IMG/VR virus record: IMGVR_UViG_3300024286_000002
Span: 1 to 42,068 of that record
Length of the DNA: 42,068 bases
Source of the DNA: a virus
Lineage: Duplodnaviria > Caudoviricetes
Strand: one strand, 5' to 3'
Position numbers and translations under genes: made by a program. This document shows, in pieces, positions 15,699-40,813 of this stretch. How positions within the stretch are numbered: the first letter of the stretch is position 1; every line of letters starts with the position of its first letter. The notes below the pieces were generated by a model. The model made no database searches. It worked only from the letters and a program-made list of their open reading frames with translations, and was not told where the DNA came from.

Positions 15699-15834
15699 GA
15701 TTGCACGGGAAGAACTGGCTTGGCGGCTGAGCCAGCGGACGTGGAAATCATACCACCAGCAGAAATGCTGCTTACCTAAGCTCGAAAGGGCCCAGAAGCG
15801 CACCGTGCAAAATGAGCCAGCCGCACAATTCTAT

Positions 15835-15863
15835 TGCACCTCTACCGCAAAGCGTGTACAAAG
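15835..15863 (+). promoter_or_regulatory. Putative late promoter
   Basis: TTGCAC-N17-TACAAA; shares TTCTATTGCA with the promoter at about 21758. Confidence 0.45.
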
Positions 15864-15880
15864 TGCACCATGGAGTAGCT

Positions 15881-16078
15881 ATGCCAGCAAAAAGTAAAGC
15901 TCAGCAAGAGGCAATGGCCATCGCGGAGCATTCCCCAAGCAAGCTTTATGGCCGAAACAAGGGCTTGCTCAAGATGAGCCACCAGCAACTGCACGACTTT
16001 GCAGCGACAAAGCGCAAAGGATTGCCTACTAGGGTTAAGGCTCGCAAGATCGGCCTGAAAGCGCTGATGAGTCGATGA
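15881..16078 (+). CDS. DUF3008-like small basic protein
   Basis: MPAKSKAQQ.AM, MS..QL.DFA.TKRKGLP. Confidence 0.8.
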   Translation: MPAKSKAQQEAMAIAEHSPSKLYGRNKGLLKMSHQQLHDFAATKRKGLPTRVKARKIGLKALMSR

Positions 16079-16242
16079 TTAAGATCAAGCCATCCCATCG
16101 CGGCCTTTTGCACAAGAACCTAGGCGTCAAAAAGGGCAAGAAAATACCTCTTTCCAAGCTGATGAGCGCCAAACACAGCGATTCGCCGGCAGAGCGTAAA
16201 CGCGCAACCTTTGCAATAAATGCGAGGAGTTGGGGTAAATGA
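16075..16242 (+). CDS. Small Lys-rich protein (55 aa, not in ORF track)
   Basis: MIKIKPSHRGLLHKNLGVKKGKKIPLSKL...RKRATFAINARSWGK. Confidence 0.8.
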   Translation: MIKIKPSHRGLLHKNLGVKKGKKIPLSKLMSAKHSDSPAERKRATFAINARSWGK

Positions 16243-16255
16243 GGAGAATATACCT

Positions 16256-16696
16256 GTGAAACGGTTCCTAGCACTGTTTTTCGCAGTAACTTCAGCAGTT
16301 GCCAGCCCAGTTTACAATACTGTCAATCCTGTCCCGCTACCCACTGGCCAGAACGTTGTGGTTTGGCAAGCAGAAACTCCGACGCCTGGTAATGGAACTA
16401 CAGCCGCTTCGCAGCAAGTCTCGCTACTTTCTACTCCGAATCGCAATGGCAGTCCTTTCAGCGTAGACGGTAAATTTAGCGGGGCACCAGGAGCATTTGA
16501 GGTGGATGTACAGGTAGCAGGTACAGACACAGACACTAACTACCAGACCTGCTCCAACTGCAACATAACCACTGTAGATGCAACGAACAACACCTTTCAT
16601 TTAGATGCGGTACTAGTCAATGCTCGCTATGCTCGATTGTTGATGCGGAGCCGCACTAATAGCGTTTCAATTACAGCCTCATTCACTGGTGGATGA
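16256..16696 (+). CDS. Signal-peptide-bearing beta-sandwich protein (putative virion accessory)
   Basis: GAGGAG RBS with GTG; MKRFLALFFAVTSAVA|. Confidence 0.8.
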   Translation: MKRFLALFFAVTSAVASPVYNTVNPVPLPTGQNVVVWQAETPTPGNGTTAASQQVSLLSTPNRNGSPFSVDGKFSGAPGAFEVDVQVAGTDTDTNYQTCSNCNITTVDATNNTFHLDAVLVNARYARLLMRSRTNSVSITASFTGG

Positions 16697-18477: not shown

Positions 18478-18752
18478 TTCTACCGCGCAATGATCGTGTG
18501 CTAGTGGAACGAATCCCAGAGCCACAGGTAGGCTTAATCCTCGCTCCTGACATAGCCAAAGAGAAGAGCTTGTCAGGCAAGATTCTGGCGATTGGGCCGA
18601 AAGTGGATATGGTAGAGCCTGGAATGATCGTGCTTTTCAACAGCAAATGGAACGACTTTGCCAATGATTACTATGACGATTTGCCAGTTGGCGCCGACAA
18701 GAACCTGCATTTGATACAGGAAGCCGACATCTTTGGGATAGTGAATGTCTAA
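18459..18752 (+). CDS. groES: Co-chaperonin GroES/Cpn10 (probable start TTG 18474)
   Basis: P..DRVLV, AKEK...G.ILAIGP, V..G..VLF, LI.E.DI.GIV. Confidence 0.88.
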   Translation: MRDKTLILPRNDRVLVERIPEPQVGLILAPDIAKEKSLSGKILAIGPKVDMVEPGMIVLFNSKWNDFANDYYDDLPVGADKNLHLIQEADIFGIVNV

Positions 18753-20856: not shown

Positions 20857-21754
20857 AGTAGTGACGCAGACAGTACCGCTCGACGGTGAAATCACTCAAG
20901 CCGAATACAAAAAGGCTCGTTTGGAAGGTAAAACCATCGTGGAGCAACCAGTTGAAAAGCCTGTCGAGAAAGAGCCGGAGGAAGTTGAACAGCCTGAAGA
21001 AGAAACAGCCGAGTCTGAGCCTAAGCCAAAAGCTAAGGGCGGTGGTTTTCAAAAGCGCATCGAGAAGCTGACAAAGGACAAATCAAAGGCCGAAGAACGG
21101 GCAGCGGAACTAGAGCGCCGAGTGCAGGAGCTTGAAGCAGCTAGGACGGAGCCGAAGAAAGAAGCTCCGAAGTCAACCACCGATGAGCCGCAAGAGGCCG
21201 ATTACACCGACTTTACGAAGTACCTGAAAGACCATACCAGATGGGAAGTGCGGCAAGAACTGAAGGAACAAGCCGAAGCTGCTGAGCGCGAATCGCTGGA
21301 AGAACAGGCAAAAGAGACTTGGGAAGATCATCAAAGCCGAATGGAAGCCGCAAAAGAGAAATATGAGGACTTCGACGAAGTGGTGGACGTTCCTACGCCT
21401 TGGACAATGACCAATCCATCGCCTATTGAACGTGCAGCGGCTGAAGCCTTCCGCATTGCAGTGATTGAGGACGATAACGGGCCAGAGATTCTCTATTACT
21501 TGGGCCAGAATGCGGAAGAATTCGCCAAGCTAGGCGAAATGACGCCAGCGCGGGTAGTCAAGGAAGTAGCAAGGCTCTCAGACAAGCTCGCACCAAAGGC
21601 AGAAAAGGAACATGCCAAGCCGAAACTTGTAAGCAAAGCTCCAGCACCGATCAAACCGGTAAGCGGTGGCGCAACAAAGAATAGCGTACCGCTCGATGAA
21701 GTCGAAGATATGCAGGAATACAAGAAACGTCGCGCAGCCGGCGAGCGAAGCTAA
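20846..21754 (+). CDS. Scaffolding protein
   Basis: Acidic coiled coil; FQKRIEKLT; GPEILYYLG.N; APAPIKPV; position between portal and coat. Confidence 0.85.
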   Translation: MDNEVVTQTVPLDGEITQAEYKKARLEGKTIVEQPVEKPVEKEPEEVEQPEEETAESEPKPKAKGGGFQKRIEKLTKDKSKAEERAAELERRVQELEAARTEPKKEAPKSTTDEPQEADYTDFTKYLKDHTRWEVRQELKEQAEAAERESLEEQAKETWEDHQSRMEAAKEKYEDFDEVVDVPTPWTMTNPSPIERAAAEAFRIAVIEDDNGPEILYYLGQNAEEFAKLGEMTPARVVKEVARLSDKLAPKAEKEHAKPKLVSKAPAPIKPVSGGATKNSVPLDEVEDMQEYKKRRAAGERS

Positions 21755-21762
21755 GATTTCTA

Positions 21763-21791
21763 TTGCATTACAGTTTTTAGCGTAGTATAGG
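21763..21791 (+). promoter_or_regulatory. Promoter for a leaderless GIY-YIG gene
   Basis: TTGCAT-N17-TATAGG-N6-ATG. Confidence 0.6.
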
Positions 21792-21797
21792 ACTACC

Positions 21798-22262
21798 ATG
21801 GCTGGTCATGTTTATCTAATTGGTTCACGCCAATTCAAATGGTACAAAATTGGCAAATCCTCCAATGCCACCATTCGTATTTCTGATCTTGGGATACTCC
21901 TACCTTTCAAAATAGAGATTTTGGCGGTCTGGAAATCTGAAAATTATCACCAATTAGAACGGGATTTGCATAAGAAATATGAGGAACACCATATAAATGG
22001 TGAGTGGTTCGCTTTCAGCAATGAGCAAATAAACAACATTCTCTACGAAATGGCTCACCTGAGTTCTGGGATCGCTATCCCTAAGTTTTCCAACATTTCA
22101 CAGAATACGCAAATGAGTTTGCATCGTAAACTTAGCCCAAAATACCAAAAGCGGATAGATAAGTTGGTTCTTCGCAACGCACAGTTGGAAGAAATAATCC
22201 GCAGGTATGGCTACGATAGGATTGCCGCCGATGAGGGCGGAAAAGAGATTCCTGTAGTCTAA
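21798..22262 (+). CDS. T5orf172/GIY-YIG family nuclease
   Basis: GHVYLI, YKIGKS, RI..L, LE..LH......GEWF. Confidence 0.85.
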   Translation: MAGHVYLIGSRQFKWYKIGKSSNATIRISDLGILLPFKIEILAVWKSENYHQLERDLHKKYEEHHINGEWFAFSNEQINNILYEMAHLSSGIAIPKFSNISQNTQMSLHRKLSPKYQKRIDKLVLRNAQLEEIIRRYGYDRIAADEGGKEIPVV

Positions 22263-22415
22263 GGAAACCCGTCAGGCCCAAGCCTGGAAATAATTTACCG
22301 TAGCGGTACGGTAAGCCATCCGGTAGGGCGCCATAAGCGCTCTGAAACCTTCTGCCGCAATACGGAAACGGCAAGCAAATAAACGTCGTTTCCAAATTTA
22401 CGATAGGAGGACAGC
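22263..22415 (+). ncRNA. Structured leader of the coat gene
   Basis: Four or five consecutive hairpins before AGGAGG-N5-TTG. Confidence 0.55.
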
Positions 22416-23636
22416 TTGGCTAATACACTTCTTACCATCGGCATGATTACCCGCGAAGGGCTGATGGTCCTAGAAAACAATTTAGGATTCACGCGGGGCG
22501 TTGACAGGCAATACGACGATCAATTCGCCAAATCCGGTGCCAAAATTGGTTCCGTACTGAATATCCGCAAGCCTGTACGCTTCACCAACACTCAAGGGCA
22601 AGGGCTCCAGTTGCAGGATTTGACTGAAACCAGCGTTCCTTTGGTGCTCACCACGCAGTATCAGCGTTCCTTTGCAGTGACTTCATCGAATTTGGCTCTG
22701 GACATTGATGATTTCTCGAAGCGTTTCATCACTCCAGCAATCGCCAGCATGGCAAACCAGATTGACTTTGACGGCATGCAACAGTTCTTGAATGTCAACA
22801 ATGAAGTTGGCACTCCTGGTTCTGTTCCGAATACTTCAAACGTCTATCTAGCGGCTGGCCAGAAGCTTGATGAAAACGCTGCACCGATCAAGATTCGGGA
22901 TTTGGTCATCAATCCACGTATGCAAGCAACGATTGTGCCGGCGCTTCAGGGCTTGTTCAATCCACAGGTAGCCATTTCCAGCCAGTATCGCAAGGGCCGG
23001 ATGTCGAAGGACACCTTGGGATTTGACTGGTACATGGACCAGAACTGCCCGACATTCACTACAGGGCCACAGGGCGGGGCGCCAGCAGTCAATGGCTTGC
23101 TCCAGACTGGCTCAAGCATTATCACAAACGGCTGGACGGCTGCGGCTGCTTTGAGACTTCGTAAGGGCGACATCATCACTTTCTCTAACTCGTTTGCGGT
23201 CAATCCACAGAGCAGAGCTTCCACTGGCTCTTTGGCACAATGGGTAGTGACTGCCGATGTTTCCTCAGACGGCGCCGGCAACGCAACAATTCCCATCTCT
23301 GGACCGGACTTCAATGGCGTGATTACTACTGGTCCATTCCAGAACGTGACGGCTGCTCCGACCACTGGCGACACAATCGCGGTGCAAGGTACAGCGAGCG
23401 TTACTTCTGGCCGTGGCATCGCTTTTGATGGCGAGGCTTTCACTTTTGCCTGTGCTGACCTGCCGCTTTATGGCGGGTTGGATATGGGTGATCGGAAGAA
23501 AGACGACCAGCTCAACATGAGCATGCGCTGCATTCGGATGTATGACATCAATATGGACAGAGCACCGCTCCGTCTTGACCTTCTCGGCGGCTGGGCAACG
23601 CTGTATCCCCAGATGGCCGTGCGGATTGCGAGCTAA
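22416..23636 (+). CDS. Major capsid protein (P22 coat family)
   Basis: MANTLLT..MITRE.L.VLEN.L, GAKIG..LNIRKP, RLD.L.GW...YP..A.RI; TTG start. Confidence 0.93.
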   Translation: MANTLLTIGMITREGLMVLENNLGFTRGVDRQYDDQFAKSGAKIGSVLNIRKPVRFTNTQGQGLQLQDLTETSVPLVLTTQYQRSFAVTSSNLALDIDDFSKRFITPAIASMANQIDFDGMQQFLNVNNEVGTPGSVPNTSNVYLAAGQKLDENAAPIKIRDLVINPRMQATIVPALQGLFNPQVAISSQYRKGRMSKDTLGFDWYMDQNCPTFTTGPQGGAPAVNGLLQTGSSIITNGWTAAAALRLRKGDIITFSNSFAVNPQSRASTGSLAQWVVTADVSSDGAGNATIPISGPDFNGVITTGPFQNVTAAPTTGDTIAVQGTASVTSGRGIAFDGEAFTFACADLPLYGGLDMGDRKKDDQLNMSMRCIRMYDINMDRAPLRLDLLGGWATLYPQMAVRIAS

Positions 23637-23650
23637 GGAGACTATAGAAA

Positions 23651-24307
23651 ATGGCTATTACAGCAACTACTCTTTCAGCAGCAGTCACGGCAAACGATCT
23701 AACGGTTAAGCTGACAGCCGTCACTGGAGTCACTGCACCAAACTTCCAGACTGGCACTGGCATTACTTACCTGCAGATCGACCAGGAGCTGTTCCTTGTC
23801 ACCGGCGTCAATACCACGACTTTGGTGGTAAACGTAGTGCGCGGGGTTCAGTCCACTAACGCGGTAGCGCATACCAATGGCTCTTTGGTTCAAATTGGCT
23901 TGCCTACTGACTTCCCTTCCACCAATGAAACCATTGGCTCCCAGACAGCCACTACGCTGGTGTTTGCAAATGCCAATCAACCAGGCATCAACTTGACTGG
24001 CTCAGCCGATGCGATCAATCCCGCCGTACCTGGCTTCTACGTCATCAAGACGGCTGGCGTGGATGCGATGACCTTGGTAGCTCCTCCTGCTTCGGCAGAA
24101 GGCAACATCATTGAAATCGTGTCCGATACGGCGAACGCTCACACTTTGACGGCAACTTCACTGCTGGCTGGTGGAACGGCTCTCAAAACTACGGGCACCT
24201 TCCCAGCCTTCCGTGGGGCTTATCTCAAACTCAGAGCTTGCAACGGAGTTTGGGAAGTGCTCTCAGCGGGTAATGCGAATACTTCTTCCTTCGTTGTCTT
24301 GACTTAA
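23651..24307 (+). CDS. Capsid decoration/accessory protein, two-domain
   Basis: AAGGAG RBS; follows coat; C-terminal domain is paralogous to the next gene. Confidence 0.75.
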   Translation: MAITATTLSAAVTANDLTVKLTAVTGVTAPNFQTGTGITYLQIDQELFLVTGVNTTTLVVNVVRGVQSTNAVAHTNGSLVQIGLPTDFPSTNETIGSQTATTLVFANANQPGINLTGSADAINPAVPGFYVIKTAGVDAMTLVAPPASAEGNIIEIVSDTANAHTLTATSLLAGGTALKTTGTFPAFRGAYLKLRACNGVWEVLSAGNANTSSFVVLT

Positions 24308-25011: not shown

Positions 25012-25731
25012 ATGCGGCTAATTGGGGCTTTGGGCAGCGGTGAGACTCCAAAGCCTGATGAGGCTTCTGATGGCTTGATGGTGCTCAATCAGATGCTCGA
25101 TAGCTGGCTGGCTGAACGTTTGATGGCGTTTTCCATTCTGATTGAAGAATTTCCCCTCACTGCTGGCAATGGCACCTATACGATGGGCCCTGGTGGCAAT
25201 TTCAATACAGCGCGGCCAGTTCGCATTGATCGTATGAGCATTGTCTGGCTGGCGAATCCATTGCAACCGCTAGAGCTTCCGATTCCCTACTTGACAGACT
25301 GGGATTGGCAGAATGTCCCTGTAAAGAACATCCAGACTTCACTCCCAACTGCCGTCTATGACGATGGCAACTTCCCACTGAGGAATCTGACCTATTGGGG
25401 CTTGCCAACTGGCCAAGTCAATACACGGATTTACAGCTGGCAGCAGCTTAGACAATTCCCCGACTTGTTCACCGATGTGACTTTCCCTCCAGGGTACATC
25501 GAAGCTCTACGCTACAACTTGGCAGTGCGGCTAATCGCTGAATATCCAGGCGAATACTCGCAAATCACGGTTTCGGCTACGCAGACGTTAGCAGTAGAGT
25601 CACTTGCGCGGGTCAAGAGCTTGAATGTTCCATTGATTGAGGCGTTCTGCGATTCAGCATTGCAAGGGCGCGGCGGCTATTACAACTTCTATTCAGACCA
25701 GCCAGCGGGTTACGGCTATGGGAGGAATTAA
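25012..25731 (+). CDS. Head-to-tail adaptor (P22 gp4-like); true N-terminus probably extends to about 24979
   Basis: RLIG.L.SGETP...E..DGL..LN.MLDSW, PPGY..AL.YNLA.RL..EY. Confidence 0.85.
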   Translation: MRLIGALGSGETPKPDEASDGLMVLNQMLDSWLAERLMAFSILIEEFPLTAGNGTYTMGPGGNFNTARPVRIDRMSIVWLANPLQPLELPIPYLTDWDWQNVPVKNIQTSLPTAVYDDGNFPLRNLTYWGLPTGQVNTRIYSWQQLRQFPDLFTDVTFPPGYIEALRYNLAVRLIAEYPGEYSQITVSATQTLAVESLARVKSLNVPLIEAFCDSALQGRGGYYNFYSDQPAGYGYGRN

Positions 25732-26642
25732 TGCCCAAATTCCCGCTGATTGGGCCTTCCTATACCAGCCAATCGGTTAACGCCGATTGTCAAACAACGA
25801 TGAACCTGTACCCTGAGCAAATCGAATCAGGGGCAGGAAACAATCAGATCGTTCTTTATCCTACGCCTGGCCTAAAAGGCTTCACAGACCTCACTCCGGT
25901 AGTGCCAGATCTTCTGCAGCCGGAAATCGTCGATGTAAATCAATACGGATGGGATACAGCCGGAGGATCGAACTCAGGAAATTCTAGAATAAACGTCCCT
26001 GTACTAACGGCCACTATTCAACCTGGAGACATACTTTTCCTTCTGTTCAATGCCACTGTTGGGCCTGGAAAACCATATAATCCGATTCTTACAATCACAG
26101 CTCCATCATTATTGGCAGGTAGTTTCACGCGATTGGGAGACCCTTACTACGATTTAGGTCTATTAGCTATTCCCAATGAATTCAGGTTCTTTCAGGTTTT
26201 CTATGCCGTTGCCGAGAATTCCGTACCTTCCACCACACTTTTAGTCAATCTGAATCTCACTTCGATAGCTTTCAACAATTTTGATATGGGTGGGGCTTTT
26301 CTTCTGGTCCGTAACATTTTAGCCTTGGACCAGCTTACAAGCCTGATTTCCCCTTCAGCGAGCATTTCAGCGCCGGCTATCACCACAACAGTGCCACGAT
26401 TCGTTTTTACCTTCTTTGGCTCCAATGAAGCATTGAGCACGCCACATCCAGATCCAACGATTTATCACTTTTTCACTCCAGGCAGTTCTGGAATGGCAGC
26501 GATTGCGGCATTTTTTATCTTAGATCCCATGCTAGGAACGATTTACACGGCTCCTGCTGGTGTATATAGTCCAGCGTGGGCGAAAGCAGGAAGTTTCTTG
26601 GCTGTTGCGCTTAACGTTTCTTTTTCGATTAAACCGGCATGA
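25731..26642 (+). CDS. N-terminal segment of a gp10-like tail hub fused to an unrelated beta domain
   Basis: GPSY...S.NAD.Q...NLYPE...LY.TPGL in the first ~50 aa, then unrelated AT-richer sequence. Confidence 0.7.
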   Translation: MPKFPLIGPSYTSQSVNADCQTTMNLYPEQIESGAGNNQIVLYPTPGLKGFTDLTPVVPDLLQPEIVDVNQYGWDTAGGSNSGNSRINVPVLTATIQPGDILFLLFNATVGPGKPYNPILTITAPSLLAGSFTRLGDPYYDLGLLAIPNEFRFFQVFYAVAENSVPSTTLLVNLNLTSIAFNNFDMGGAFLLVRNILALDQLTSLISPSASISAPAITTTVPRFVFTFFGSNEALSTPHPDPTIYHFFTPGSSGMAAIAAFFILDPMLGTIYTAPAGVYSPAWAKAGSFLAVALNVSFSIKPA

Positions 26643-28264
26643 GTGTACGCGGCCTATTCACGATTAAAGTTGGCGGGACGCAGGGACGTACCTTCGCCGT
26701 CTCTCAGACTAACTTCGATGAAATCTTTGCCAATACCACTTTTGCATCCAGAGGAGCGGTATCGAATGATAGTCAGCTAGTTTCATTTGCTTCCAGTGCT
26801 CAGCAGATGATTATTGCCGCTGCCGGCACGATGTATCTATTTGACTTAGGCACAAACACATTTTCGACAGTGCCAGCAGCTAATTTCACAGGGCCAGTGT
26901 CACAGGTAGGCTATTCCGATGGCTTCTTTCTGGCCCTCATTGCCGATTCAAACCGTTTTTACGTTTCAGGTGCCTTGGATGCTACGGACTGGACCAGCAA
27001 TGGATCGGCGCTAGTGTCTGAATTCCCCGATAATCTAGTTTCAATGCTTGTCGATCACCGGCAAATCTGGTTCTGGAGCGCGACAAAGGCCATTGTCTAC
27101 TACAACTCAGGAGCTAACTTCCCATTTGACCCTGTACCCTCTGGATTCATTGAACAGGGCTGTGCGGCTAAATGGTCACCAGCTCGTCTGGACAATACGA
27201 TTTTCTGGCTAGGTTCAGACGATCGGGGCAGCGGAATTGTCTGGAAAGCGACTGGCTATACGCCTAGCAGAGTTTCTAATCACGCTATCGAATTTGCCAT
27301 GCAAGGCTATGTGCGGATTGACGATGCTATTGGCTATGCCTTTCAGATGCAAGGGCATTCGTTCTATCAGCTTTACTTTCCGGCAGCAGGTAAGACTTGG
27401 CGCTATGACGTAGCTACTTCCATGTGGCATGAAGTCGGCTTCTGGAATGTCAATTTCGGATTCTTTGAAGCGCATCATTCGCAGGTCCATACCTTCAACT
27501 TCGGCAAGCACCTCGTAGGCGATTGGTCCAGCAACAAAATTTACGATATGGAAATCCCGAAGTGGAACAACGGCGTATGGGACTTTGCAACCGATGATGG
27601 AGCTTTGATTCGCAGAGTTAGGCGCTGCGCCCACGTTTCCGATGAGCAGCATTACTCCATGCATCATCAGATTCAGCTATTCCTAGAGACTGGCCTAGGT
27701 CCAGTACCACCCCTGCCTGGAAGTGAAGCGCCTACTAGCTTCATTCTTGCCGATGGCACAGGTGCTCTATGGTCGCTAGGGATTTCTGATATTGGAGTAC
27801 TGACCACGACTGGCGGGGCATTTGGAACGCCTGGAACATTGATTCTGACCGATACAACTGATGGCACAACATCTTGGCAAGTTGGCGTCAATAACATCGG
27901 AGTTTTGACTACTGTACAGGTTCCTTTTGGTTCGTCTTATCCGACTGTGCTGCAAATGGTTTCCGCTTCCGGCACGCAGCGTTGGACCATGTATTTGAGC
28001 AATCTAGGAGTGCTGATTACCAGTCCTGGTGGCGCTGTCTTTCGTGAGCCTCAAGTCTCTGTGCGCTGGAGCGATGATTCAGCGCATACCTTTGGCAATG
28101 AATACCTAATTGGCTGCGGATTCTCAGGCGAATTCGCTAAACGTGTCATGCTGCGGAGACTAGGCCGAGCTAGAGACAGAGTTTATGAGATTTCCATGAG
28201 CGATCCAATCCCCTGGCGCTTGATTGCGGGTTACTTGGAGGTGGCTGGCAGTGGCGACAGGTAG
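26639..28264 (+). CDS. Packaged-DNA stabilisation/tail hub protein (P22 gp10-like), main body
   Basis: VRGL, DGFF, E.PD.L, E.GC.A, RVS.HAIE, GH.FY.L.FP, W.YD.AT..WH, RWSDD, RLG.ARDRV. Confidence 0.88.
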   Translation: MSVRGLFTIKVGGTQGRTFAVSQTNFDEIFANTTFASRGAVSNDSQLVSFASSAQQMIIAAAGTMYLFDLGTNTFSTVPAANFTGPVSQVGYSDGFFLALIADSNRFYVSGALDATDWTSNGSALVSEFPDNLVSMLVDHRQIWFWSATKAIVYYNSGANFPFDPVPSGFIEQGCAAKWSPARLDNTIFWLGSDDRGSGIVWKATGYTPSRVSNHAIEFAMQGYVRIDDAIGYAFQMQGHSFYQLYFPAAGKTWRYDVATSMWHEVGFWNVNFGFFEAHHSQVHTFNFGKHLVGDWSSNKIYDMEIPKWNNGVWDFATDDGALIRRVRRCAHVSDEQHYSMHHQIQLFLETGLGPVPPLPGSEAPTSFILADGTGALWSLGISDIGVLTTTGGAFGTPGTLILTDTTDGTTSWQVGVNNIGVLTTVQVPFGSSYPTVLQMVSASGTQRWTMYLSNLGVLITSPGGAVFREPQVSVRWSDDSAHTFGNEYLIGCGFSGEFAKRVMLRRLGRARDRVYEISMSDPIPWRLIAGYLEVAGSGDR

Positions 28265-31859: not shown

Positions 31860-32788
31860 GCACACCTGCGGTTCTGCCAGCCGAGTTTTTCAAGCCTGAA
31901 GCGCCAGATACATTACCCGCTGAATTTTTTAGCCATCAAACAGCAGCGGCCACTAAAGAACCTTCTTTTTATGAAAAGCTGACGGCTCCGATTGATACAG
32001 GGGCTACGAACCCAGTTTCGCGCTTTGCTTCTTCGCTTGGTGGGGCAGTAATTGGTGCTCCAAAGGCTACTTTTGACACTATGTCCGATTTGGCAAAATC
32101 CTATTTTAATCCACGGCGACCTAGCCAAGTAGGGCAGAACATTTCTGAAAGCATTGCTGCTTACGCCAAACCAGAAACATGGAAAGGAATTCCTAGTGTT
32201 TTGCCGGAGGCTCTCGGTCAAGGCGTGGGAAGTGTAGTAGCAGGTGAGATTGCTGGAAAATTGCCTGGAACCATAAAAGCGGAGCTCCCTAGTACAGCCA
32301 ACGCAGGAGCTTCACTCGCAGATATTAAAGGAAGTGTAGGACAAATTCCTATCGATATGACTAAGCCGGGGAATACTGCACTGGAGATTTATACCCAATC
32401 CCAGCGCGGAGGTACGCTCCCAAAGTCAGTACGAGATTTCGTTAATCGAGCCACTAAGCCCGATAGTCCTCCACTCACTTATGCAGAAGCAAAGGATTTC
32501 CAATCGAATATTTCTAGGCTTTCAGCCGATGAATATCAACGTATGAATCCAAATGCCAAGAGGATGGTAGGCCAGTTAAATGCCGATTTGAAAGATAGTT
32601 TAGCTTCGGCGGCTGATATACAGGGCAAGGGCCAGCAATTCCAAGATGCCATGAAGGAATATCACAACGCAATGCGGCTAAAGGGCATGAGCGACGATGC
32701 GATCAGTTATGCATGGAAGACTGCACTGGCTGGCGCAGGTATTTATGGCCTGAGTAAATTGCTAGGAATTGAGGCACCTAAACTATGA
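31856..32788 (+). CDS. DNA ejection/internal virion protein
   Basis: Position; LPAEFF repeated twice at the N-terminus. Confidence 0.65.
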   Translation: MSTPAVLPAEFFKPEAPDTLPAEFFSHQTAAATKEPSFYEKLTAPIDTGATNPVSRFASSLGGAVIGAPKATFDTMSDLAKSYFNPRRPSQVGQNISESIAAYAKPETWKGIPSVLPEALGQGVGSVVAGEIAGKLPGTIKAELPSTANAGASLADIKGSVGQIPIDMTKPGNTALEIYTQSQRGGTLPKSVRDFVNRATKPDSPPLTYAEAKDFQSNISRLSADEYQRMNPNAKRMVGQLNADLKDSLASAADIQGKGQQFQDAMKEYHNAMRLKGMSDDAISYAWKTALAGAGIYGLSKLLGIEAPKL

Positions 32789-33963
32789 GAAAGCTTTTAT
32801 TGCTTCTGGCTTTACTTTTCGCGCTTCCGGCTTATGGCCAAGTGGCCTTGATGCCTTTCACTAAGAGCCAGTTTTTCGACAATTCTGGCCGGCCATGCAC
32901 AGGCTGCAAGCTATTCACTTACGCAGCCGGAACCACGACGCCTCTAGTCACCTATCACGATTCGGCTGGAGTCATTCCCAATACCAACCCAGTGGTTCTC
33001 GATTCGGCTGGTCGCGGCGATGTATGGCTCACCGCTGTAGCTTACAAGCTGATTCTGCAAACCTCTGTAGGCGTAACACTGTGGAGCGAAGATAACATCA
33101 GTTCAGCCAATAACACCTTGCTCGGTTTGAACAACATCTGGACAGGCACAAATACCTGGAACAACACCGCTACATTCAATTCCAGCGTGACATTCAATTC
33201 TGGCTTCACGTCGAGCGGCCCTAACAACATGAGCGGTGGAGGTATCCTAGATGGTACTTTTACTGGCACACCTGTCTTTTCTGGCGTACCGAGCTTTTCA
33301 AATGGTTTCAGTTCCACTACAGGCACTTTTAGCGGTCAAATCACTTCGACGCTTGCCACTGGAACGCCACCTTTTGTCATCGCCAGCACCACGCAAGTCA
33401 ACAATTTGAATGCGGGGTTGCTCAATGGCTGTACATGGGCCATTCCCTGCCCTCTAGGCTCAACCACGCCCAACACAGCCAGCATTACCACGTTACTGGC
33501 AAACAGCTTCACGCTCGCTGGCGGTACTCCACAGGTCGCTGTGCAGGGTTCAGATAATCATTTGATGAGTGCTGGAACGATTGCCGGTGCTGCTGGCACT
33601 ACAGTATGCCTCGACGCCAATGCTGGCTTGACTACAACCAGTTGCAGCATAGGCGCCAGCAAGATTCAGGCAGTAACCTATTGCGCGGTGGGCTGTACGG
33701 TCACAGGAACACCTTGTACCACTGGCGGCAGCACTTTTGATACTTGCGACAACTCTATTTCATGGCCAGTGGCTTTCGCCGATGCAAACTACTCCGTGAC
33801 TTGCAGCGGCGTGACTCCTGTAGATGGTGGAAATCCCACAACGGGCAGAGTCAATCTGCAAATCGCATCGCAGAATACGGTTTCTGTTGCTGTTAGAACT
33901 GTGACGCTCGGATCTTCGCCTATTCATTGGACACAAGTGAACTGCACTGGAGTCCATCCTTGA
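32785..33963 (+). CDS. Tailspike/fibre with head-binding domain, preceded by a signal peptide
   Basis: MRKLLLLLALLFALPAYG|Q then QFFD..G.P..G.KL.TY.AGTTTPL.TY...NTNP.VLDSAGR. Confidence 0.85.
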   Translation: MRKLLLLLALLFALPAYGQVALMPFTKSQFFDNSGRPCTGCKLFTYAAGTTTPLVTYHDSAGVIPNTNPVVLDSAGRGDVWLTAVAYKLILQTSVGVTLWSEDNISSANNTLLGLNNIWTGTNTWNNTATFNSSVTFNSGFTSSGPNNMSGGGILDGTFTGTPVFSGVPSFSNGFSSTTGTFSGQITSTLATGTPPFVIASTTQVNNLNAGLLNGCTWAIPCPLGSTTPNTASITTLLANSFTLAGGTPQVAVQGSDNHLMSAGTIAGAAGTTVCLDANAGLTTTSCSIGASKIQAVTYCAVGCTVTGTPCTTGGSTFDTCDNSISWPVAFADANYSVTCSGVTPVDGGNPTTGRVNLQIASQNTVSVAVRTVTLGSSPIHWTQVNCTGVHP

Positions 33964-36317
33964 AAAAACTTCTACTTTCCCTAGCCCTGCTTTTAGCCTA
34001 TCGCGCACCAGCACAAACTAATACAGCTCGGATGTTGTCTGGCATCAATGCCCAGACCGGAACGACTTATACTTTTGTTTGCACGGATGCCACCAAGCTA
34101 GTCACATTCAACAATTCTAATCCAGTAGCGGCTACGCTGTTTGCAGCAACTGATCCGTGCTCCGGCCCTGGCATTATGTTCAGCGTCAAGAATATCGGCG
34201 CCGGCAATGTCACAATCACGCCGGTCAGCGGCACAATCAACGGCAGCGCAAGCCTTATCCTGCAGCCACTCCAAGGCGCAGACATTTGGAACGATGGAGC
34301 GAACTACACATCTGAAGGAAGTACTACTGCCGGCCCTCCACCAGCAGGATTCCCCCGCCTCGACCAAGTGACCGATCAAAACATCAGCAAGTCATTCAAT
34401 CAAGGTACTGGAAGCCTTTCTTTTAGCGGCGGTCCAGGTCTCAATCTATCTGGCGAGACCTCGGCAATGACGATTCCCCTTGTGGCTGGATGCGCCACTA
34501 CCTCGAGCGGTCAGATTTGCTTCGATACAACCGGATTGAACTATCACGGCAATCAGGGAGCGGATTCAATTATCCCTTCATTTGTGCCTGGTGGAGTTAA
34601 CAGTGGAGACATGGCCGGTTTTTTACTCTCTGGTGGCAAATGGACACTGACAAGTTTAGGGCCACCATCGAGCAGCAGCGGTACTGTCGTTACAGCCACA
34701 ATCTCCAACATTCAGGACGGCGATTCGATTTGTTGGGATAACACGATTACGCCTCCAGGCTTCGTGAACTGTCCTCCTGGCGTGCCACCTGTAGTCATTA
34801 GCGGAACCACGTATGCTTTTGATGGAACGGAACGCGGAGAAATCCTCTATCTAACTGCTGTAGGCACTAAAGCCATTTCCCTGCCGCAAGCCAGCGATGC
34901 TACCGCTTTCAATGGGAACTGGTTTACTTTCGTCAAAAATGATGGCGCTGGCCTAGCAACGATCACCGCTACTACCTCAACATTCTTTTCAACAGGTGGC
35001 GCTACCCTTACCATCGCGCAAGGAATTGGATGCTCGATTTTCTCCGATCCAACAGGCACAGGAACGTACTATGACCGATGCTCGCCTGTCCCCTTGACTG
35101 CAAGCACCAATATTACTCTCACTCCAGCGGCTTATGCGATTTCGATTGCTGCGGCTGGCGGTGGCGGTGGAACGATTACCGGCGCTGGCACGGCCAACAA
35201 CGTAACCAAGTGGACTGGTGCGGCGACGGTAGGCAATGGCTGCGGAATAGATGATGGCACCAACGCGGTGCGCTGTGACAAAGGCTATGACGTTAACCAG
35301 TTAGGCGCTTATCTCTGGTGGGCTACGAACAATGCGGTTACTGGAACCACTGCCAATAAACTAGCTTGCGACGATGGCACGGGCAAAGCCATTATCTGTC
35401 CTTTCGCATCTTCCACTACAAATAATCCTCTAGGCGTGGCTGTAGCAGCGAACGGCGCCACTCCAGGTACTACTGGCTCAACCGGAATCTGCATCATCGG
35501 CTTTTGCTCAGTCATCATGGACAATGGGGCTACGGCAGGGCATTACGCACAATCCAGCACCACAGTAAACGGAGATTTGAGCGACGTAGGAACGACGATT
35601 CCAACCAACGGTCAATCCTACTGGTACATCTTCACCGGCAACGCTGGCGCCGGCACAGCGGCAATCATCCGCAATCTCACGCCTAGCGAATTAAATGCCT
35701 CCAGCATCAGCGGCGGCAATGGGCGCAACCTGCAACTCAGCGTAAATGGTACAGCCACAACCAAAACAATCAAGAATTTCAACTCCACGACACCAGCAGC
35801 AGGAGCAAACAATCAGAATCTAGTAGTACAGACTTCCGCGAGCGGAAATACGGATAGCATCAGCTTAGAAGTGCCTCTGGCCACTACTGGACAGGCTGGA
35901 CTTGTGCAACTCGCTGGAGGTTTGGGAGGCACTTCGGCTTCGCCTACGCTTCATACGAATCACGGTCTTGCTTTTAGCATTGGTACGCCAGGAGGAACGG
36001 CATTGACGGTGGCTTCGACCACCACCTCGTACCTCACTATTCCTTTCGCCTGTACCATTTCTGCCTACAATTTAGCCATAGATGCTGGAACGATCACTGT
36101 CAAATTCTGGAAGATAGCAACTGGCACGGCGATTCCCACCAGCGCCAACTCAATCAACACCAGTGGCGTAGGCATCTCAAGCGGCACGGCAATTCATTCC
36201 ACGACCCTAGGCGATTTCACCACCACAACGGTTAACGCTAACGACATCATGGCAATGAACGTGACTGCCGTAGCAACGGCAGCCTATGTCAGCGGGGTGC
36301 TAAAGTGCGATCAATAG
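33960..36317 (+). CDS. Signal-peptide-bearing tail fibre-like protein
   Basis: GGAG RBS with TTG; MKKLLLSLALLLAYRAPA|Q; two NAQTGTTYT..D / SGTTY..D modules. Confidence 0.8.
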   Translation: MKKLLLSLALLLAYRAPAQTNTARMLSGINAQTGTTYTFVCTDATKLVTFNNSNPVAATLFAATDPCSGPGIMFSVKNIGAGNVTITPVSGTINGSASLILQPLQGADIWNDGANYTSEGSTTAGPPPAGFPRLDQVTDQNISKSFNQGTGSLSFSGGPGLNLSGETSAMTIPLVAGCATTSSGQICFDTTGLNYHGNQGADSIIPSFVPGGVNSGDMAGFLLSGGKWTLTSLGPPSSSSGTVVTATISNIQDGDSICWDNTITPPGFVNCPPGVPPVVISGTTYAFDGTERGEILYLTAVGTKAISLPQASDATAFNGNWFTFVKNDGAGLATITATTSTFFSTGGATLTIAQGIGCSIFSDPTGTGTYYDRCSPVPLTASTNITLTPAAYAISIAAAGGGGGTITGAGTANNVTKWTGAATVGNGCGIDDGTNAVRCDKGYDVNQLGAYLWWATNNAVTGTTANKLACDDGTGKAIICPFASSTTNNPLGVAVAANGATPGTTGSTGICIIGFCSVIMDNGATAGHYAQSSTTVNGDLSDVGTTIPTNGQSYWYIFTGNAGAGTAAIIRNLTPSELNASSISGGNGRNLQLSVNGTATTKTIKNFNSTTPAAGANNQNLVVQTSASGNTDSISLEVPLATTGQAGLVQLAGGLGGTSASPTLHTNHGLAFSIGTPGGTALTVASTTTSYLTIPFACTISAYNLAIDAGTITVKFWKIATGTAIPTSANSINTSGVGISSGTAIHSTTLGDFTTTTVNANDIMAMNVTAVATAAYVSGVLKCDQ

Positions 36318-37942
36318 TTCTACTCGGACTATTGTTCTGCCCTGCGCTTGCCGTGGCGCAATTTCCATATCCATACATCTTGCCGATTCAAGCGGTGACC
36401 AGCAACAACAACTCTTGTATTTTCAACCACAACGTAACAAGCGGAAATTACATGATTGTCGGCTCTAGCTGGTTTAGCGCCGGAGCTGCGCCAAGTCTCA
36501 GCGATACGCGCAGCACTAGTTACACGCAAAAGGTCTATAGCTCGACTGGTTCTGGCTCAGTTGGCGCTGCTATCTATGCCGGTACGCTTGGTTCTTCGGG
36601 AGCTAACACTGTCACTTTCTCCATCAGCGGAGCCACGTTCCAGCAAACCTACTGTGCAGAGTTTCCTCCTTCATTTTCGCTGACAACGGATGGAACAGAC
36701 ATTACAAATTACTCAGGGAATCCCGCAACCATCACCAGCACTGGCATTACAACTACGTTGAGCGGTGACATTCTCATATCACTGGCCGGAGGCTTCCATA
36801 ATAACTCTATCTGCGGGCCAGTAGACGCTCGCGGCGTTCCAGCTAATTTTGTCTATAAGGGCTTGGGATTGGCGCGGAACAATGATGGTGGATGCTGGCT
36901 CTACAAAGTGACTGGAGCAGCGGGGAGCTACACGAACAGTTTCACGAACTGGCAGAACATGGACCAGGGATTAGTGGTCACGGCAGCTTTTAAAGCCAAT
37001 CCTATGCACATCTCTACGCCACTTGCTATTCCTAACGGCTCGCTCTCGAAAACTTATAATTATACTTTGGGTGCGGCGGGAGCGGCTTCCACCGTCACAT
37101 GGTCGGGCACGCCTCCTCTGGGTTTATCGCTAAACGCCTCAACCGGAGCAATCACTGGCACGCCTACGGTGAGCAATCACTATTCATTCAGCATATCTGC
37201 CAATGATGGCACCACAACTGACACGCAGACCTTGACGATGGACGTTGTGACTTCGTTTGGGGCTATAAGCGTAGTGCAGACCAAGGGAAACACTGGAGCT
37301 CTTGCTCCTCCCTTAACGTTTACCAGCAATGTCACTTCTGGGAATATTGGAGTTATCTTCGCCAATGATGTGGTCGGAACGTTTTATGCTGGTTCTCCTA
37401 TTAGCTGCACGGATTCGCTCAATACCGTCTACAATCGCGTCACTTTGAATAACATGGTATTTGACGACAACGAACAAATTTTCATCGGTAAATTCACTTC
37501 TAGCGGGGCTAACACCGTTACCTGCCAAAACGCAGATGGCAGCGGTGGAGGCGGTGTTGACGCTCAAATGGGCGCAATAGCGGAACTGGCCAATGTCCAG
37601 AACTTTGGAGACTTCTCTGATGTCAAATGGGACACTTCGGCCTCGCCTGTTACTTCCACGTCTCTGACAACTCCTGTACCAGATTCCATTGTTTTATGTG
37701 AAGCGGTAGGCCGGACAGGCGCAACAACGTTTACAGCGCAAGCTCCATTTACAGCAGTCGGCGGCACGGCCAATTCTAATGGCGCGTATGACATAGCGAC
37801 TACTGTGACTGGTTATGCCTGTACGTATACAATGGCCGGAAACACAGACGGCAACTGGCAGATTCAAAACATAGCTTTAAGGCCGAGCGCAGGAGTAGTT
37901 GTACCACCGGCACCGGCGAATAACTTTTCTACGGTGTTTTAG
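36305..37942 (+). CDS. Signal-peptide-bearing protein with two paralogous beta domains flanking a putative Ig domain
   Basis: MRSIVLLGLLFCPALAVA|Q; P.GLSLN.STG.ITGTPT; VTSGN...D....Y...SSGANTVT occurs twice. Confidence 0.8.
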   Translation: MRSIVLLGLLFCPALAVAQFPYPYILPIQAVTSNNNSCIFNHNVTSGNYMIVGSSWFSAGAAPSLSDTRSTSYTQKVYSSTGSGSVGAAIYAGTLGSSGANTVTFSISGATFQQTYCAEFPPSFSLTTDGTDITNYSGNPATITSTGITTTLSGDILISLAGGFHNNSICGPVDARGVPANFVYKGLGLARNNDGGCWLYKVTGAAGSYTNSFTNWQNMDQGLVVTAAFKANPMHISTPLAIPNGSLSKTYNYTLGAAGAASTVTWSGTPPLGLSLNASTGAITGTPTVSNHYSFSISANDGTTTDTQTLTMDVVTSFGAISVVQTKGNTGALAPPLTFTSNVTSGNIGVIFANDVVGTFYAGSPISCTDSLNTVYNRVTLNNMVFDDNEQIFIGKFTSSGANTVTCQNADGSGGGGVDAQMGAIAELANVQNFGDFSDVKWDTSASPVTSTSLTTPVPDSIVLCEAVGRTGATTFTAQAPFTAVGGTANSNGAYDIATTVTGYACTYTMAGNTDGNWQIQNIALRPSAGVVVPPAPANNFSTVF

Positions 37943-37954
37943 GGAGGATATGAC

Positions 37955-40813
37955 GTGAGACGACTACTGTTTGCAATGGGCCTCCTGCTTTGCGCTTCGG
38001 CGGCTAATGCCTCCATTGCGAATATCTACTACGCCCAAACCGCTGCTGGTCTAGCCGATGGGACTTCATGCGCCAATGCCTATGCTGTGCATGATGCCGT
38101 GAACGGCTTCAACGCTGCCGGCAAGTGGGGCGCTGGCGGTACACAGATTGGCCAAGATACCGTAGTACATCTCTGCGGTACATACACAGGGGCGGCAAAT
38201 GAGCAGGATGTTCTCTTTCCACAAGGCAGCGGTGCAAGTGGCCATCCAATCACGGTTAAAGCGGAGACTGGATTTATTCTCACATCTCCGGTATGGGGCG
38301 CTTTTACTGGATCGCCTATCACCAATCACCAGAATTTCATCGTATTTGATGGAGCAAATACAGGCATAATCCGCAACACGGCAAACGGCACTGGTCTAGC
38401 GTTCAATCAAAACTCCAATTTCTTCTTCAACGATGGCCATGACGTAACCATCAAGAATTGGACACTGACCAATCTTTGCGTGCATCTGGCCAGCCCGAAC
38501 GATGAGACTTCCTGCTCTAGCTCTGGTGTACAGCCTTATGCGATTCAAACCAGCGGCTCAAATAACCTCGTTACTGGCAATACGATCAGCAACACCTTCG
38601 CAGGAGTGTTTTTCAGCGAAGGCGCTTCTGATACTGGAGTAGTCATTTCCAACAACACCATTTCCAATATGAACTGGGGCATCGGTATAGGGCTTACGAC
38701 TGGTGCTAATTCTGGAACGCTCGACGTTTTCGGAAACGACATTTCTACTGCTGCGAATTGGGACGAAACCCTAAATAACAATCACCACAACTGCATTTTT
38801 TACTTCCAGGGAAATGGCGGTACGCAAAGCGGGGCCACCAATATCTACAACAATTACTGCCATGGGGACTTCGGAATCCACCAAACTTCGCTGCTTTTCA
38901 TCGATCCGAACGGCGGCACCATCGCTAACGTGCGAATCTTCAATAATTTGCTGGTGAATCCTTCAACCGTGAACGGCGCTGGAAACGGCTATATTACCGG
39001 CTGCGGTACAAATACAGTCCCATTCGGCCAGATTTACAACAACACCATCGTAGGCTCCGGCGCCGGCCTCGCTGGAATCAAAACCGATTCGCCTTGCAAG
39101 ATACTAAACAACATCATCACCGGCATGAAGATGGGCATTTCCGTCAATCCAGGGACTACGCTCACTAGTAGCAACAACAACGTCTTCTTTGGACTCACGG
39201 GCAATGGTGGGGCAGTAATGGGCTACGGCGCAACGAGCTATGCGACGGTGGCGGCTTGGATCTCCGGCACCGGCTTCGATACGGCTTCTTCTGTGTTAAA
39301 TCCTAACCTGAATAGTGCGAGCGTACCGCCCTATCAGCCACAAGCGGGGAGCTCGGCAATCCTCTTGGGCACCAACCTGACTGCCCTTGGGATTACTCCT
39401 TTGAACTCCGACTTCTTGGGAGTATCGAGGCCGGCACCGGCTACAAATTGGACTTCTGGAGCTTTCCAATTCGGTGGCGCAACGGCTCCTGTATTGTCTT
39501 TCAGTCCCAGTCCTGCGGCTTTTGGCAATCAGAACATAGGAACCACGGGAAGTCTTTCGATCACTGTATCGAACGTAGGCACGGCCACGGAAACCTATTC
39601 CAGCTTCTCGCTTTCGCCTTCTGTGTTCACAAACGGTAATACCGGACTAGGTGGGCAATGTCCTGCCAGCGGCACAATCGGAGTATCAGCTAGTTGTACG
39701 GTGCTCGCGAAGTTCACTCCTGCGGTTGTGACGAACTATAGCGGCACTTTGAGCTTTGTAGGGACGGTAAATGGTTCGGATGTGCTCACAGGCTCTGGAA
39801 CCAATGCTATTTCGATTCCTAGCGTTCCTACGGGCCTAACCACGGCGGTTTCCGGCTCGACTGTGAACCTTTCGTGGACAGCTTCCACTGGAACGCCAGC
39901 TAATTACGTCCTAAGGCGTGCAACGGTCAGCGGAGGACCGTACACCACTATCGCTTCGCCTACTGTCACTTCATATGCTGATACCGGCCTCGCCGCTGGA
40001 ACCTATTTCTATGTGGTGGCAGCCCAAAACTCAGCAGGAACGAGCGCCAATTCCACTCAAGCCAACGCAACGATCATTGCTCTTGTGCCGGCGGTCAACA
40101 TCATTCCGGCATCTCTGAATTTTGGCCTAGTGAACCAAGGCTCGACAGCCACTCAAGGGCTCACTGTCACCAATAGCGGTACTGGGACGCTGAACCTAAC
40201 TGGCTCTGCCGTTACGATTTCAGGAGCGAATGCGGCTGATTTCACCGTGGACGGTACTACAACCTGTACCAATGGCCTAGCTCGCACTCCTGGCCAACAG
40301 TGCAATATCGTGATTGACTTCCTGCCCACGACTACCACGTTTGAGCAGGCTACGGTTTGCCTCAACAGCAATTCTCCTGACACTCCAGACTGCGCGACAA
40401 TGACTGGAACTGGAGTTGGGCCAGTACTCGTTTCCCCTACCAGCCTCAACTTCGGGAATATCAACAAAAACAAATCGAGCACGGCGCAAATCGTCACTTA
40501 TTCAAACAACAGCGGCTCGACGGTCACGCTATCTATCTCCATCACAGGCACCAATGCCTCTGAATTCAGCAAAACAACGACTTGCGGCGGCACGCAGCCG
40601 AACGGAACGCCTTGCACGGTCAGCGTTACATTCAGCCCAACGTCAAACGGCAGCAAGAGCGCCAATCTGGTGTTCACCGATACGGCGTCTGGCAGTCCTC
40701 GCACCGTCACTCTTTCGGGCCAAGCAACAGGCAAGAAAGTGCTTAGAGTTGGAGCGGTTGTAGGCTATAAGAAGAAACAAACGAATTGCTGCATAAAACG
40801 CACGTTAATCTAG
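37955..40813 (+). CDS. Signal-peptide-bearing beta-helix protein with FN3 and three choice-of-anchor D/ASH Ig domains
   Basis: MRRLLFAMGLLLCASAANA|; I.NN repeats; LSWTAS...Y...Y.V.A.N; three F.N/FG...C......C.V...F.P units. Confidence 0.85.
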   Translation: MRRLLFAMGLLLCASAANASIANIYYAQTAAGLADGTSCANAYAVHDAVNGFNAAGKWGAGGTQIGQDTVVHLCGTYTGAANEQDVLFPQGSGASGHPITVKAETGFILTSPVWGAFTGSPITNHQNFIVFDGANTGIIRNTANGTGLAFNQNSNFFFNDGHDVTIKNWTLTNLCVHLASPNDETSCSSSGVQPYAIQTSGSNNLVTGNTISNTFAGVFFSEGASDTGVVISNNTISNMNWGIGIGLTTGANSGTLDVFGNDISTAANWDETLNNNHHNCIFYFQGNGGTQSGATNIYNNYCHGDFGIHQTSLLFIDPNGGTIANVRIFNNLLVNPSTVNGAGNGYITGCGTNTVPFGQIYNNTIVGSGAGLAGIKTDSPCKILNNIITGMKMGISVNPGTTLTSSNNNVFFGLTGNGGAVMGYGATSYATVAAWISGTGFDTASSVLNPNLNSASVPPYQPQAGSSAILLGTNLTALGITPLNSDFLGVSRPAPATNWTSGAFQFGGATAPVLSFSPSPAAFGNQNIGTTGSLSITVSNVGTATETYSSFSLSPSVFTNGNTGLGGQCPASGTIGVSASCTVLAKFTPAVVTNYSGTLSFVGTVNGSDVLTGSGTNAISIPSVPTGLTTAVSGSTVNLSWTASTGTPANYVLRRATVSGGPYTTIASPTVTSYADTGLAAGTYFYVVAAQNSAGTSANSTQANATIIALVPAVNIIPASLNFGLVNQGSTATQGLTVTNSGTGTLNLTGSAVTISGANAADFTVDGTTTCTNGLARTPGQQCNIVIDFLPTTTTFEQATVCLNSNSPDTPDCATMTGTGVGPVLVSPTSLNFGNINKNKSSTAQIVTYSNNSGSTVTLSISITGTNASEFSKTTTCGGTQPNGTPCTVSVTFSPTSNGSKSANLVFTDTASGSPRTVTLSGQATGKKVLRVGAVVGYKKKQTNCCIKRTLI

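Follow-up and report, generated by a model that had tools for sequence, protein, structure and literature searches.

Predicted Sec leaders on the fibres and spikes of a P22-like soil podovirus suggest an extracytoplasmic branch of virion assembly

Why should the fibre genes of a tailed phage begin with signal peptides, when the assembly of such phages is taken as entirely cytoplasmic? The question is raised by IMG/VR record IMGVR_UViG_3300024286_000002, analysed here over its whole length of 42,068 bases (the window), which is complete, carries a direct terminal repeat of 119 bases and represents a P22-like podovirus; the sequencing run listed for it is one soil DNA metagenome, with no RNA run listed. 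Six of its late genes, four of them consecutive in the tail-fibre position, bear predicted Sec leaders that are restricted to outer virion parts, and in the first fibre gene the leader stands ahead of a conserved virion anchor and of cysteines that covary in pairs. These leader-bearing outer parts are a real, conserved and surprising feature. An initial annotation of the window had read them as a two-compartment pathway, with receptor-binding parts exported for oxidative folding, and our analysis supports that reading, as every computational prediction testable here held. We give a probability of about 0.72 to a route in which outer parts are exported by Sec, folded with disulfides in the periplasm and docked on finished particles at lysis.

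Leaders, cysteines and a virion anchor

Leaders were identified by inspection and by a heuristic based on hydropathy, and all signals are predicted ones. By these means all six genes have a basic n-region, a hydrophobic h-region whose core is rich in Leu and not in Gly/Ala, and small residues at -3/-1. The +1 residue is Gln or Ser with no lipobox Cys. Lipoproteins were rejected; a holin/spanin or signal-arrest-release (SAR) endolysin identity was rejected as well, as were mis-called starts. The four open reading frames (ORFs) of the fibre cluster and their leaders were recovered as first annotated (Table 1), and with the likewise leader-bearing genes at 16256 and 16693 they total 10,260 bp, or 24% of the genome, in line with an earlier figure of six genes and about 10 kb. 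No transmembrane segment or C-terminal anchor was found by 19-residue hydropathy in the six mature chains (maxima 0.47-1.82, the top value lying mid-chain), which agrees with what had been said of the four. Their description as coupled genes stands for three overlapping junctions (ATGA, TTGA and 13 nt) and not for the last, where the genes lie 12 nt apart and the fourth has a ribosome site to itself; the four starts are, in order, ATG, TTG, GTG and GTG, each behind a Shine-Dalgarno-like run that is weakest at the third. The leader-bearing genes overlap the late operon, and their GC content (0.50-0.54) is as elsewhere in the genome.

Mature cysteine counts are even in all six proteins (Table 1). 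Recounting returned the earlier values for the four fibre-cluster proteins and the 0-1 reported for the decoration-slot, needle-like and ejection proteins, and among other core proteins the portal has 6, the coat 3 and the hub 3. The view that the cysteines lie mostly in local pairs needs one reservation, namely that the final two of the 952-aa protein are adjacent in its basic tail and may be no ordinary pair.

The first gene of the cluster, fibre 1, does have a podoviral head-binding domain directly behind its signal, as the initial annotation had proposed. The domain matches Pam1 7EEQ (phmmer E 1.4e-8) and Pan3 9VYG/9VYH (E 6e-5 to 7.5e-4), and Foldseek with an AlphaFold2 (AF2) model built from 42 sequences (mean predicted local distance difference test score, pLDDT, 74) returned the head-binding domains of Pan3 9VYG, Pam1 7EEQ, P22 2VKY and Sf6 7SG7. 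It does not start at the initiator Met, since the 18-aa leader lies ahead of it. The tip of the model has weak Foldseek likeness to discoidin II (E 4e-3) and the R1 pyocin knob (E 2e-2) and is likely sugar-binding. Because of these domain matches and model likenesses we describe the protein as a fibre made up of virion anchor, stalk and lectin-like tip; it was first called a tailspike, a label we drop because fibre 1 is without a parallel beta-helix depolymerase body, although PF12708 is present in leader-bearing homologs, P0075 and P0100 among them. No second head-binding domain was found in the genome, and this one occupies the tailspike slot behind the ejection genes, in a setting with portal, coat, hub and ejection genes (PF16510, PF11651, phrog_578, phrog_598). 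Compared with GenBank phages it matches 36 records, none of them over the leader.

Cysteine covariation was followed in those 63 of 67 close homologs that have an aligned mature start, of which 57 have an even cysteine total and 62 a Gln at +1. Within the domain, C38 and C41 occur together in 30 and are both missing in 33, and 24 of these 33 have instead a Cys at 42, whose partner in most cases lies in an insertion of the loop after position 93. Further pairs covary along the chain (both/first only/second only/neither: 216+222, 54/0/0/9; 340+387, 53/0/0/10; 300+304, 14/1/0/48; 275+287, 57/3/0/3), and the sixth, 311/321, was assigned by elimination, so that the 12 cysteines of fibre 1 likely form six disulfide-type pairs. 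Such covariation is the pattern that disulfides predict, with the proviso that the homologs are related and that a tree of 95 columns does not hold enough independent contrasts.

The same domain with and without a leader

Among the best 150 of 22,338 head-binding representatives (50% identity clusters), ranked by likeness to the window so that leaders are over-represented, 56 have a leader, 1 lies just below threshold and 93 begin at the domain; the survey of relatives proposed in the initial annotation thus does return fusions of a signal with a head-binding domain. The predicted cleavage site falls at the position of the Met in signal-less homologs, and the 56 leaders are variable in sequence, mostly ending in A-x-A before Q. 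At least two cysteines lie within the domain in 34 of the 56 leader-bearing representatives as against 1 of the 93 signal-less ones, and among chains of at least 250 aa with any Cys the totals are even in 39/46 and 28/77, respectively. Counted by locus over 150 unique domains, at least two cysteines occur in 30/43 with a leader (the 43 take in two false calls, L145 and L152) and in 2/107 without. Against two relatives the leader of fibre 1 is 41-47% and the domain 65-85% identical; for a third and closer one the two values are 88% and 85%. Twenty-six columns are at least 80% conserved in the 107 signal-less domains, and in 39 leader-bearing domains 25 of them have the same top residue and 15 again reach at least 80%. 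A leader kept in character but not in sequence, ahead of a domain that is itself kept, fits the export reading.

These features also bear on another idea, in which the leaders are cleaved late or never and act as signal anchors or SAR-like tethers, keeping the fibres at the inner membrane up to lysis. Assembly would then still be staged at that membrane, with proteins that are not free in the periplasm. Phage endolysins are known to be tethered in the SAR manner, and the hydrophobic cores are long enough to insert; nevertheless, the small -3/-1 residues and the near-constant Gln at +1, exactly at the start of signal-less domains, point to cleavage by signal peptidase I (SPase I), and with cores that are Leu-rich we consider such anchors very unlikely.

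Alternatively, virion forms could arise in the cytoplasm, through initiation at internal starts or by escape from export, and be air-oxidised after lysis, with the leaders serving a second, exported form. Codons 20, 22 and 23 of fibre 1 are GTG, TTG and ATG, and disulfide-rich tailed virions are known (passages of PMC10811340). Across 41 leader-positive loci, however, an ATG, GTG or TTG lies near the domain in 28, at scattered positions, and in none of the other 13, and an internal start has a Shine-Dalgarno-like run before it in 1/41, so that translation starting downstream of the signal, raised in the initial annotation as counter-evidence, is backed in that single locus. Cys pairs, moreover, are nearly absent from signal-less homologs, as the 1 of 93 above indicates, and we allow this account a slimmer chance still.

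Leaders also extend beyond the domain gene itself. Among ORFs of at least 250 aa within 6 kb downstream of a leader-bearing domain (41 loci), 49 of 76 have leaders and 42 of those 49 have even cysteine counts, as against leaders in 11/143 downstream ORFs of 106 signal-less loci. The heuristic fires on none of the 101 core virion-gene homologs in the leader-positive loci, which rules out chance hydrophobic N-termini. The third and fourth slots of the cluster are swapped among close relatives, yet leader-bearing throughout; unrelated leader-bearing ORFs occupy the 545-aa slot in L002 and L003, and in L005 homologs of both 16256 and 16693 lie within the tail-fibre cluster. The post-coat family is a second one with a leader present/absent switch, because homologs of the signal-less window protein at L017:615-1568 and L142:1291-2166 (BLASTP 31% over 140 aa and 36% over 101 aa) bear signals ending at the window protein's start.

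Other arrangements were also seen. In mosaic modules of two Bdellovibrionota prophages (L121:7457-11892 and L123:9962-14130) and two viral contigs (L016 and L037), one or two signal-less head-binding genes are followed by leader-bearing Cys-rich proteins. A leader-bearing protein lies directly after the hub gene at L014:2463 and just before the head-binding gene at L099:8654, and at L007:9477-11667 the start of a gene for signal and head-binding domain occurs three times in tandem in nearly identical form, two copies being short, which may be an assembly artefact or a duplication.

Hosts and known systems

Scanning GTDB with a pattern built from leader-bearing sequences, and taking the host phylum from the record title, gave 60 loci, of which 14/16 Acidobacteriota loci and 4/44 others have a leader (Fisher p 2e-8, ignoring kinship). 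Three of those 4 lie on contigs below 3 kb and may be misbinned, and L103 is an atypical Acidobacteriota locus; a hub, adaptor or ejection homolog is present in 9 of the 14 leader-bearing Acidobacteriota loci. The closest host locus, L082 (51% over 286 residues), is a prophage in an Acidiferrales metagenome-assembled genome, with hub and coat genes and host-like genes adjoining, and relatives occur as prophages in L088 and L097 too. At L092:10001-11731 a signal plus head-binding gene stands amid host genes and is possibly a domesticated copy. The host of the window phage, as judged from its relatives, is likely an acidobacterium. A single-protein query found no match in 400 further genomes from the phylum of genome G001, so such prophages appear uncommon there. 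Genomes of the likely host type have DsbA-like genes in 5/5 cases and VKOR in 3/5; the glutaminyl cyclase PF05096 occurs in just 2/5, which leaves pyroglutamate at the N-terminus only a possibility. A crude heuristic, offering weak support, places Gln at +1 of host exported proteins in 13/44 Acidobacteriota and 0/14 Burkholderiales cases.

The nearest structural counterparts are the P22-type tailspikes (Pam1 7EEQ; Pan3 9VYG/9VYH; P22 gp9 1LKT, 2VKY and 8TVR; Sf6 gp14 7SG7), which have a homologous head-binding domain and whose gene likewise lies behind the ejection genes in a portal/coat/hub module. Unlike them, fibre 1 has a signal peptide, a Cys pair, a stalk with a lectin-like tip and five leader-bearing companions. 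Receptor-binding virion proteins with a Sec signal and periplasmic disulfides are known from pIII of the inoviruses (Inoviridae), which has a C-terminal anchor and belongs to particles extruded without lysis, whereas the window proteins lack an anchor and come from a tailed dsDNA phage with portal, terminase and coat. Bdellovibrio MAT (mosaic adhesive trimer) fibres are exported, phage-tail-fibre-like trimers with variable tips and disulfides, and they share with the window a signal peptide followed by a conserved N-terminal beta domain, which shows that folding after export is possible for such fibres (passages of PMC10769870). MATs are, however, chromosomal cell-surface adhesins, whereas the window has a virion head-binding domain in a phage late operon. 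The tailed virion of Agrobacterium phage Milano is stabilised by many disulfides, and a term search of its main text found no mention of signal peptides or periplasm (PMC10811340, in part); in the window, unlike Milano, the Cys pairs are confined to leader-bearing outer parts. Passages on Porphyromonas phages describe genes of unknown function with signals of the Q-rule type (for the rule, passages of PMC5837995), interpreted there as host-membrane modifiers (PMC10367356). Searches of full text in PMC-CC and bioRxiv, in part aimed at disulfides or signal peptides of structural proteins in tailed phages and with subscription journals largely outside, yielded no description of exported tailspikes or fibres in tailed phages. 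Term searches of PMC3517404, PMC5026251, PMC5723332, PMC10820202 and PMC12494034, and of a short part of PMC13419713, gave nothing relevant to the question.

A cultured case comes from Tunturi 1 (PP887698), an Acidobacteriota podovirus with leaders on gp12, 13, 14, 16 and 17 (mature Cys 20, 10, 20, 1 and 32), genes that lie between a tail gene and the lysis genes and include an annotated tail spike, gp14. These proteins have no detectable homology to those of the window; gp12 gave no significant match to the head-binding domain profile, its N-domain matching only the Pan3 tail spike at E 0.27. Homologs of gp12 and gp17 adjoin a leader-bearing head-binding gene in L097. Passages of the Tunturi paper list no integrase for this phage and make no mention of signal peptides or mass spectrometry, though its supplements may annotate these genes (PMC11924767).

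A proposed assembly route within the phage genome

P22 tailspikes are added last to the particle and bind finished heads in vitro, and Dsb oxidation is periplasmic. A route combining the two would begin from observed features, namely six late genes with predicted leaders of n-, h- and c-regions and even cysteines beside core genes without, and a conserved head-binding domain directly behind the predicted cleavage site of fibre 1. The proteins would then pass SecYEG and be cleaved by SPase I, so that most would begin with Gln, possibly in cyclised form; the covarying Cys pairs would next undergo DsbA- or VKOR-type oxidation and the chains would form trimers, and holin lesions or the burst would let fibre 1 trimers reach the gp10/gp4-like hub. 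In the least certain step, the other five proteins may attach to fibre 1, to each other or to the head, giving a branched, swappable receptor-binding set. Leaders stand on the parts that a particle can receive last, in keeping with this route, which is likely a new variant of P22-type morphogenesis with an extracytoplasmic branch.

The proteins might instead be exported and remain off the virion, as free depolymerases or decoys, clearing capsule ahead of the progeny or blocking competitor phages, or as host-surface morons, with adsorption served by the hub-fused domain of the 25731 gene and the needle. The ASH, FN3 and He_PIG domains found in window proteins are typical of secreted bacterial proteins, orphan-like copies stand in the host chromosomes L092 and L085, a signal-less adhesin candidate is present in 25731, and both the Porphyromonas genes and the exported MAT adhesins offer precedents. 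A conserved head-binding domain would, however, be useless to a free or surface protein, and here the genome's only one occupies the tailspike slot after the ejection genes; the complete record has no detected integrase, neither tyrosine (PF00589) nor large serine recombinase (PF07508), that would favour lysogenic-conversion morons; L006 and L014 have an intact hub with no hub-fused domain, yet a leader-bearing fibre; and the capsid-accessory (post-coat) family has the same leader switch. We therefore judge an off-virion role unlikely.

Several points weigh against the route of export and late docking. The counts are not phylogenetically independent: on a tree of 146 head-binding domains (95 columns) the leader needs 10 changes, 2 of them forced by well-supported branches, and just 2 independent pairs with and without leader serve a sign test. 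The leader heuristic errs at a known rate (2 clear false calls in 43; 5/254 core homologs in signal-less loci). The leader-bearing copies on host chromosomes in L085 (Edaphobacter aggregans) and L092, with no coat match in the genome, fit use by the host. Two Bryobacterales loci are without a leader, and in a comparison of Tunturi 1 with the first halves of Tunturi 3 and 4, the 24 and 18 genes read in the latter two include no head, tail or fibre gene with a leader, so the trait is not universal in Acidobacteriota phages. The signal-less adhesin candidate on the hub N-terminus means that the exported parts may be dispensable, and the Milano virion indicates that Cys pairs alone need no export. 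Finally, cleavage, export, disulfides, presence in the virion and timing at lysis are predictions from sequence.

A broader version, which we hold as tentative and somewhat doubtful, is that a widespread group of Acidobacteriota soil podoviruses has moved its whole outer virion layer (fibres, spikes and capsid decoration) into the host secretory pathway, with signals gained separately on several unrelated families, mosaic cases in Bdellovibrionota prophages, and virions completed at lysis or outside the cell; loose fibres could then be shared between co-infecting phages.

Table 1. Leader-bearing genes, head-binding domain and core particle genes of the window, with predicted features and their support
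Feature	Position	Strand	Notes and support
Predicted Sec/SPase I signal peptide of fibre 1, 18 aa, end A-Y-G before Q	32785..32838	+	position and character kept in close homologs
P22/Sf6/Pam1/Pan3-type head-binding domain, residues 19-115, C38-x-x-C41 pair	32839..33129	+	phmmer, Foldseek, phrog_26190
Fibre 1, 392 aa: signal, head-binding domain, beta-rich stalk, H-type-lectin-like tip; 12 Cys	32785..33963	+	AF2, Foldseek
Fibre 2, 785 aa, TTG start, 16 Cys, signal end A-P-A before Q	33960..36317	+	phrog_15797, phrog_35197
Adhesin-like protein, 545 aa, GTG start, 8 Cys, signal end A-V-A before Q	36305..37942	+	PF05345
Spike-like protein, 952 aa, GTG start, 18 Cys, signal end A-N-A before S	37955..40813	+	PF22073, PF22544, PF15780, PF00041
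Small leader-bearing protein, 146 aa, 2 mature Cys, one CxxC	16256..16696	+	78%-identical homolog in L005 tail-fibre cluster
Leader-bearing spike, predicted beta-helix, 594 aa, 20 mature Cys	16693..18477	+	no head-binding domain
P22-like head module: terminase, portal 18745-20856, scaffold, coat 22416-23636	13820..23636	+	no signals; PF16510, PF11651, phrog_2, phrog_8865
Post-coat (decoration-slot) protein	23651..24307	+	signal-less in window
Likely tail adaptor (P22 gp4 slot)	25012..25731	+	no signal, 1 Cys; phrog_12985; role from position
Hub N-terminus of about 57 aa fused to viral beta domain of about 245 aa	25731..26642	+	signal-less, Cys-free; phrog_578 on residues 3-57
Tail hub (P22 gp10-like)	26639..28264	+	phrog_578 E 2e-77; no signal

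The remaining cluster proteins are mixtures of phage-type and immunoglobulin (Ig)-like domains. Fibre 2 has phage-type N- and C-terminal domains and 41 homologs, most with leaders by eye; tblastn against GenBank phages gave no match, and a single-sequence AF2 model of 462 residues was unusable (mean pLDDT 35). In the 545-aa protein two related beta domains flank a He_PIG Ig domain (repeat E 1e-4) ahead of a Pro-rich C-terminal tail. The 952-aa protein has an N-half that is likely a beta-helix by eye, three ASH/HYDIN-type Ig domains, an FN3 domain and a conserved basic C-terminal tail, kept in L002 and L003, and tblastn of GenBank phages matches only its Ig/FN3 pieces (7 records). The last two proteins end in short C-terminal tails behind linkers (37890-37942 and 40730-40813), and several leader-bearing genes at distal positions, both in relatives and in Tunturi 1, end in a similar Pro-rich linker with a short peptide; these tails are possible docking peptides. 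For the 594-aa spike, Atlas comparison placed phage depolymerases nearest by features (0.88, a lead only) and beta-helix proteins nearest by structure (TM 0.43-0.54).

The late operon runs through terminase, portal, scaffold, coat, likely adaptor and gp10-like hub and also has a needle-like gene, a GNAT gene and three ejection genes. The hub at 26639..28264 is the expected docking site for the head-binding domain. It is split over two genes in the window, and likewise in L002, L003, L004, L012 and L013, and is unsplit in L006, L011, L014, L142 and L143. The beta domain fused to its N-terminus has Atlas look-alikes in unnamed viral clusters (0.95) and gave no significant match when compared with the 545-aa protein, and this fusion is the one clear candidate for an adhesin made in the cytoplasm. 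A GroES-like co-chaperonin gene (PF00166) lies at 18459-18752, between the 594-aa spike and the portal, and a T5orf172/MUG113 endonuclease-like gene at 21798-22262, between scaffold and coat. On the minus strand, 1832-2290 (likely start 2209) has a lipoprotein signal with a lipobox Cys and further Cys, adjoins a DUF5675 gene, which we presume to be an endolysin, and possibly encodes a spanin or lysis accessory. Also on the minus strand, 11129-11764 of the early region, without a Pfam match, has a signal-like stretch, a C-terminal Pro-Glu-Pro motif, a hydrophobic segment and a basic tail and by eye resembles a PEP-CTERM surface protein, and 5747-8151 holds a PAPS-reductase/DUF3440 gene and a ParB-like gene, which we take to be an IbrA/IbrB-type pair.

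If the proposed route is true, tailed-phage assembly would have a second compartment, infectivity would be tied to the timing and type of lysis, and it would be explained how phages can acquire Ig, FN3 and lectin domains that depend on disulfides from proteins secreted by their hosts. Annotation is affected as well, in that such genes are taken for morons or host contamination. The leader trait offers a sequence marker for phages of Acidobacteriota, bacteria abundant in soil whose phages are barely studied, and the cultured pair Tunturi 1 and Tunturiibacter psychrotolerans makes the route testable. Should the whole outer layer prove to be exported, it would be a bacterial counterpart of the viral glycoproteins that mature in the endoplasmic reticulum.

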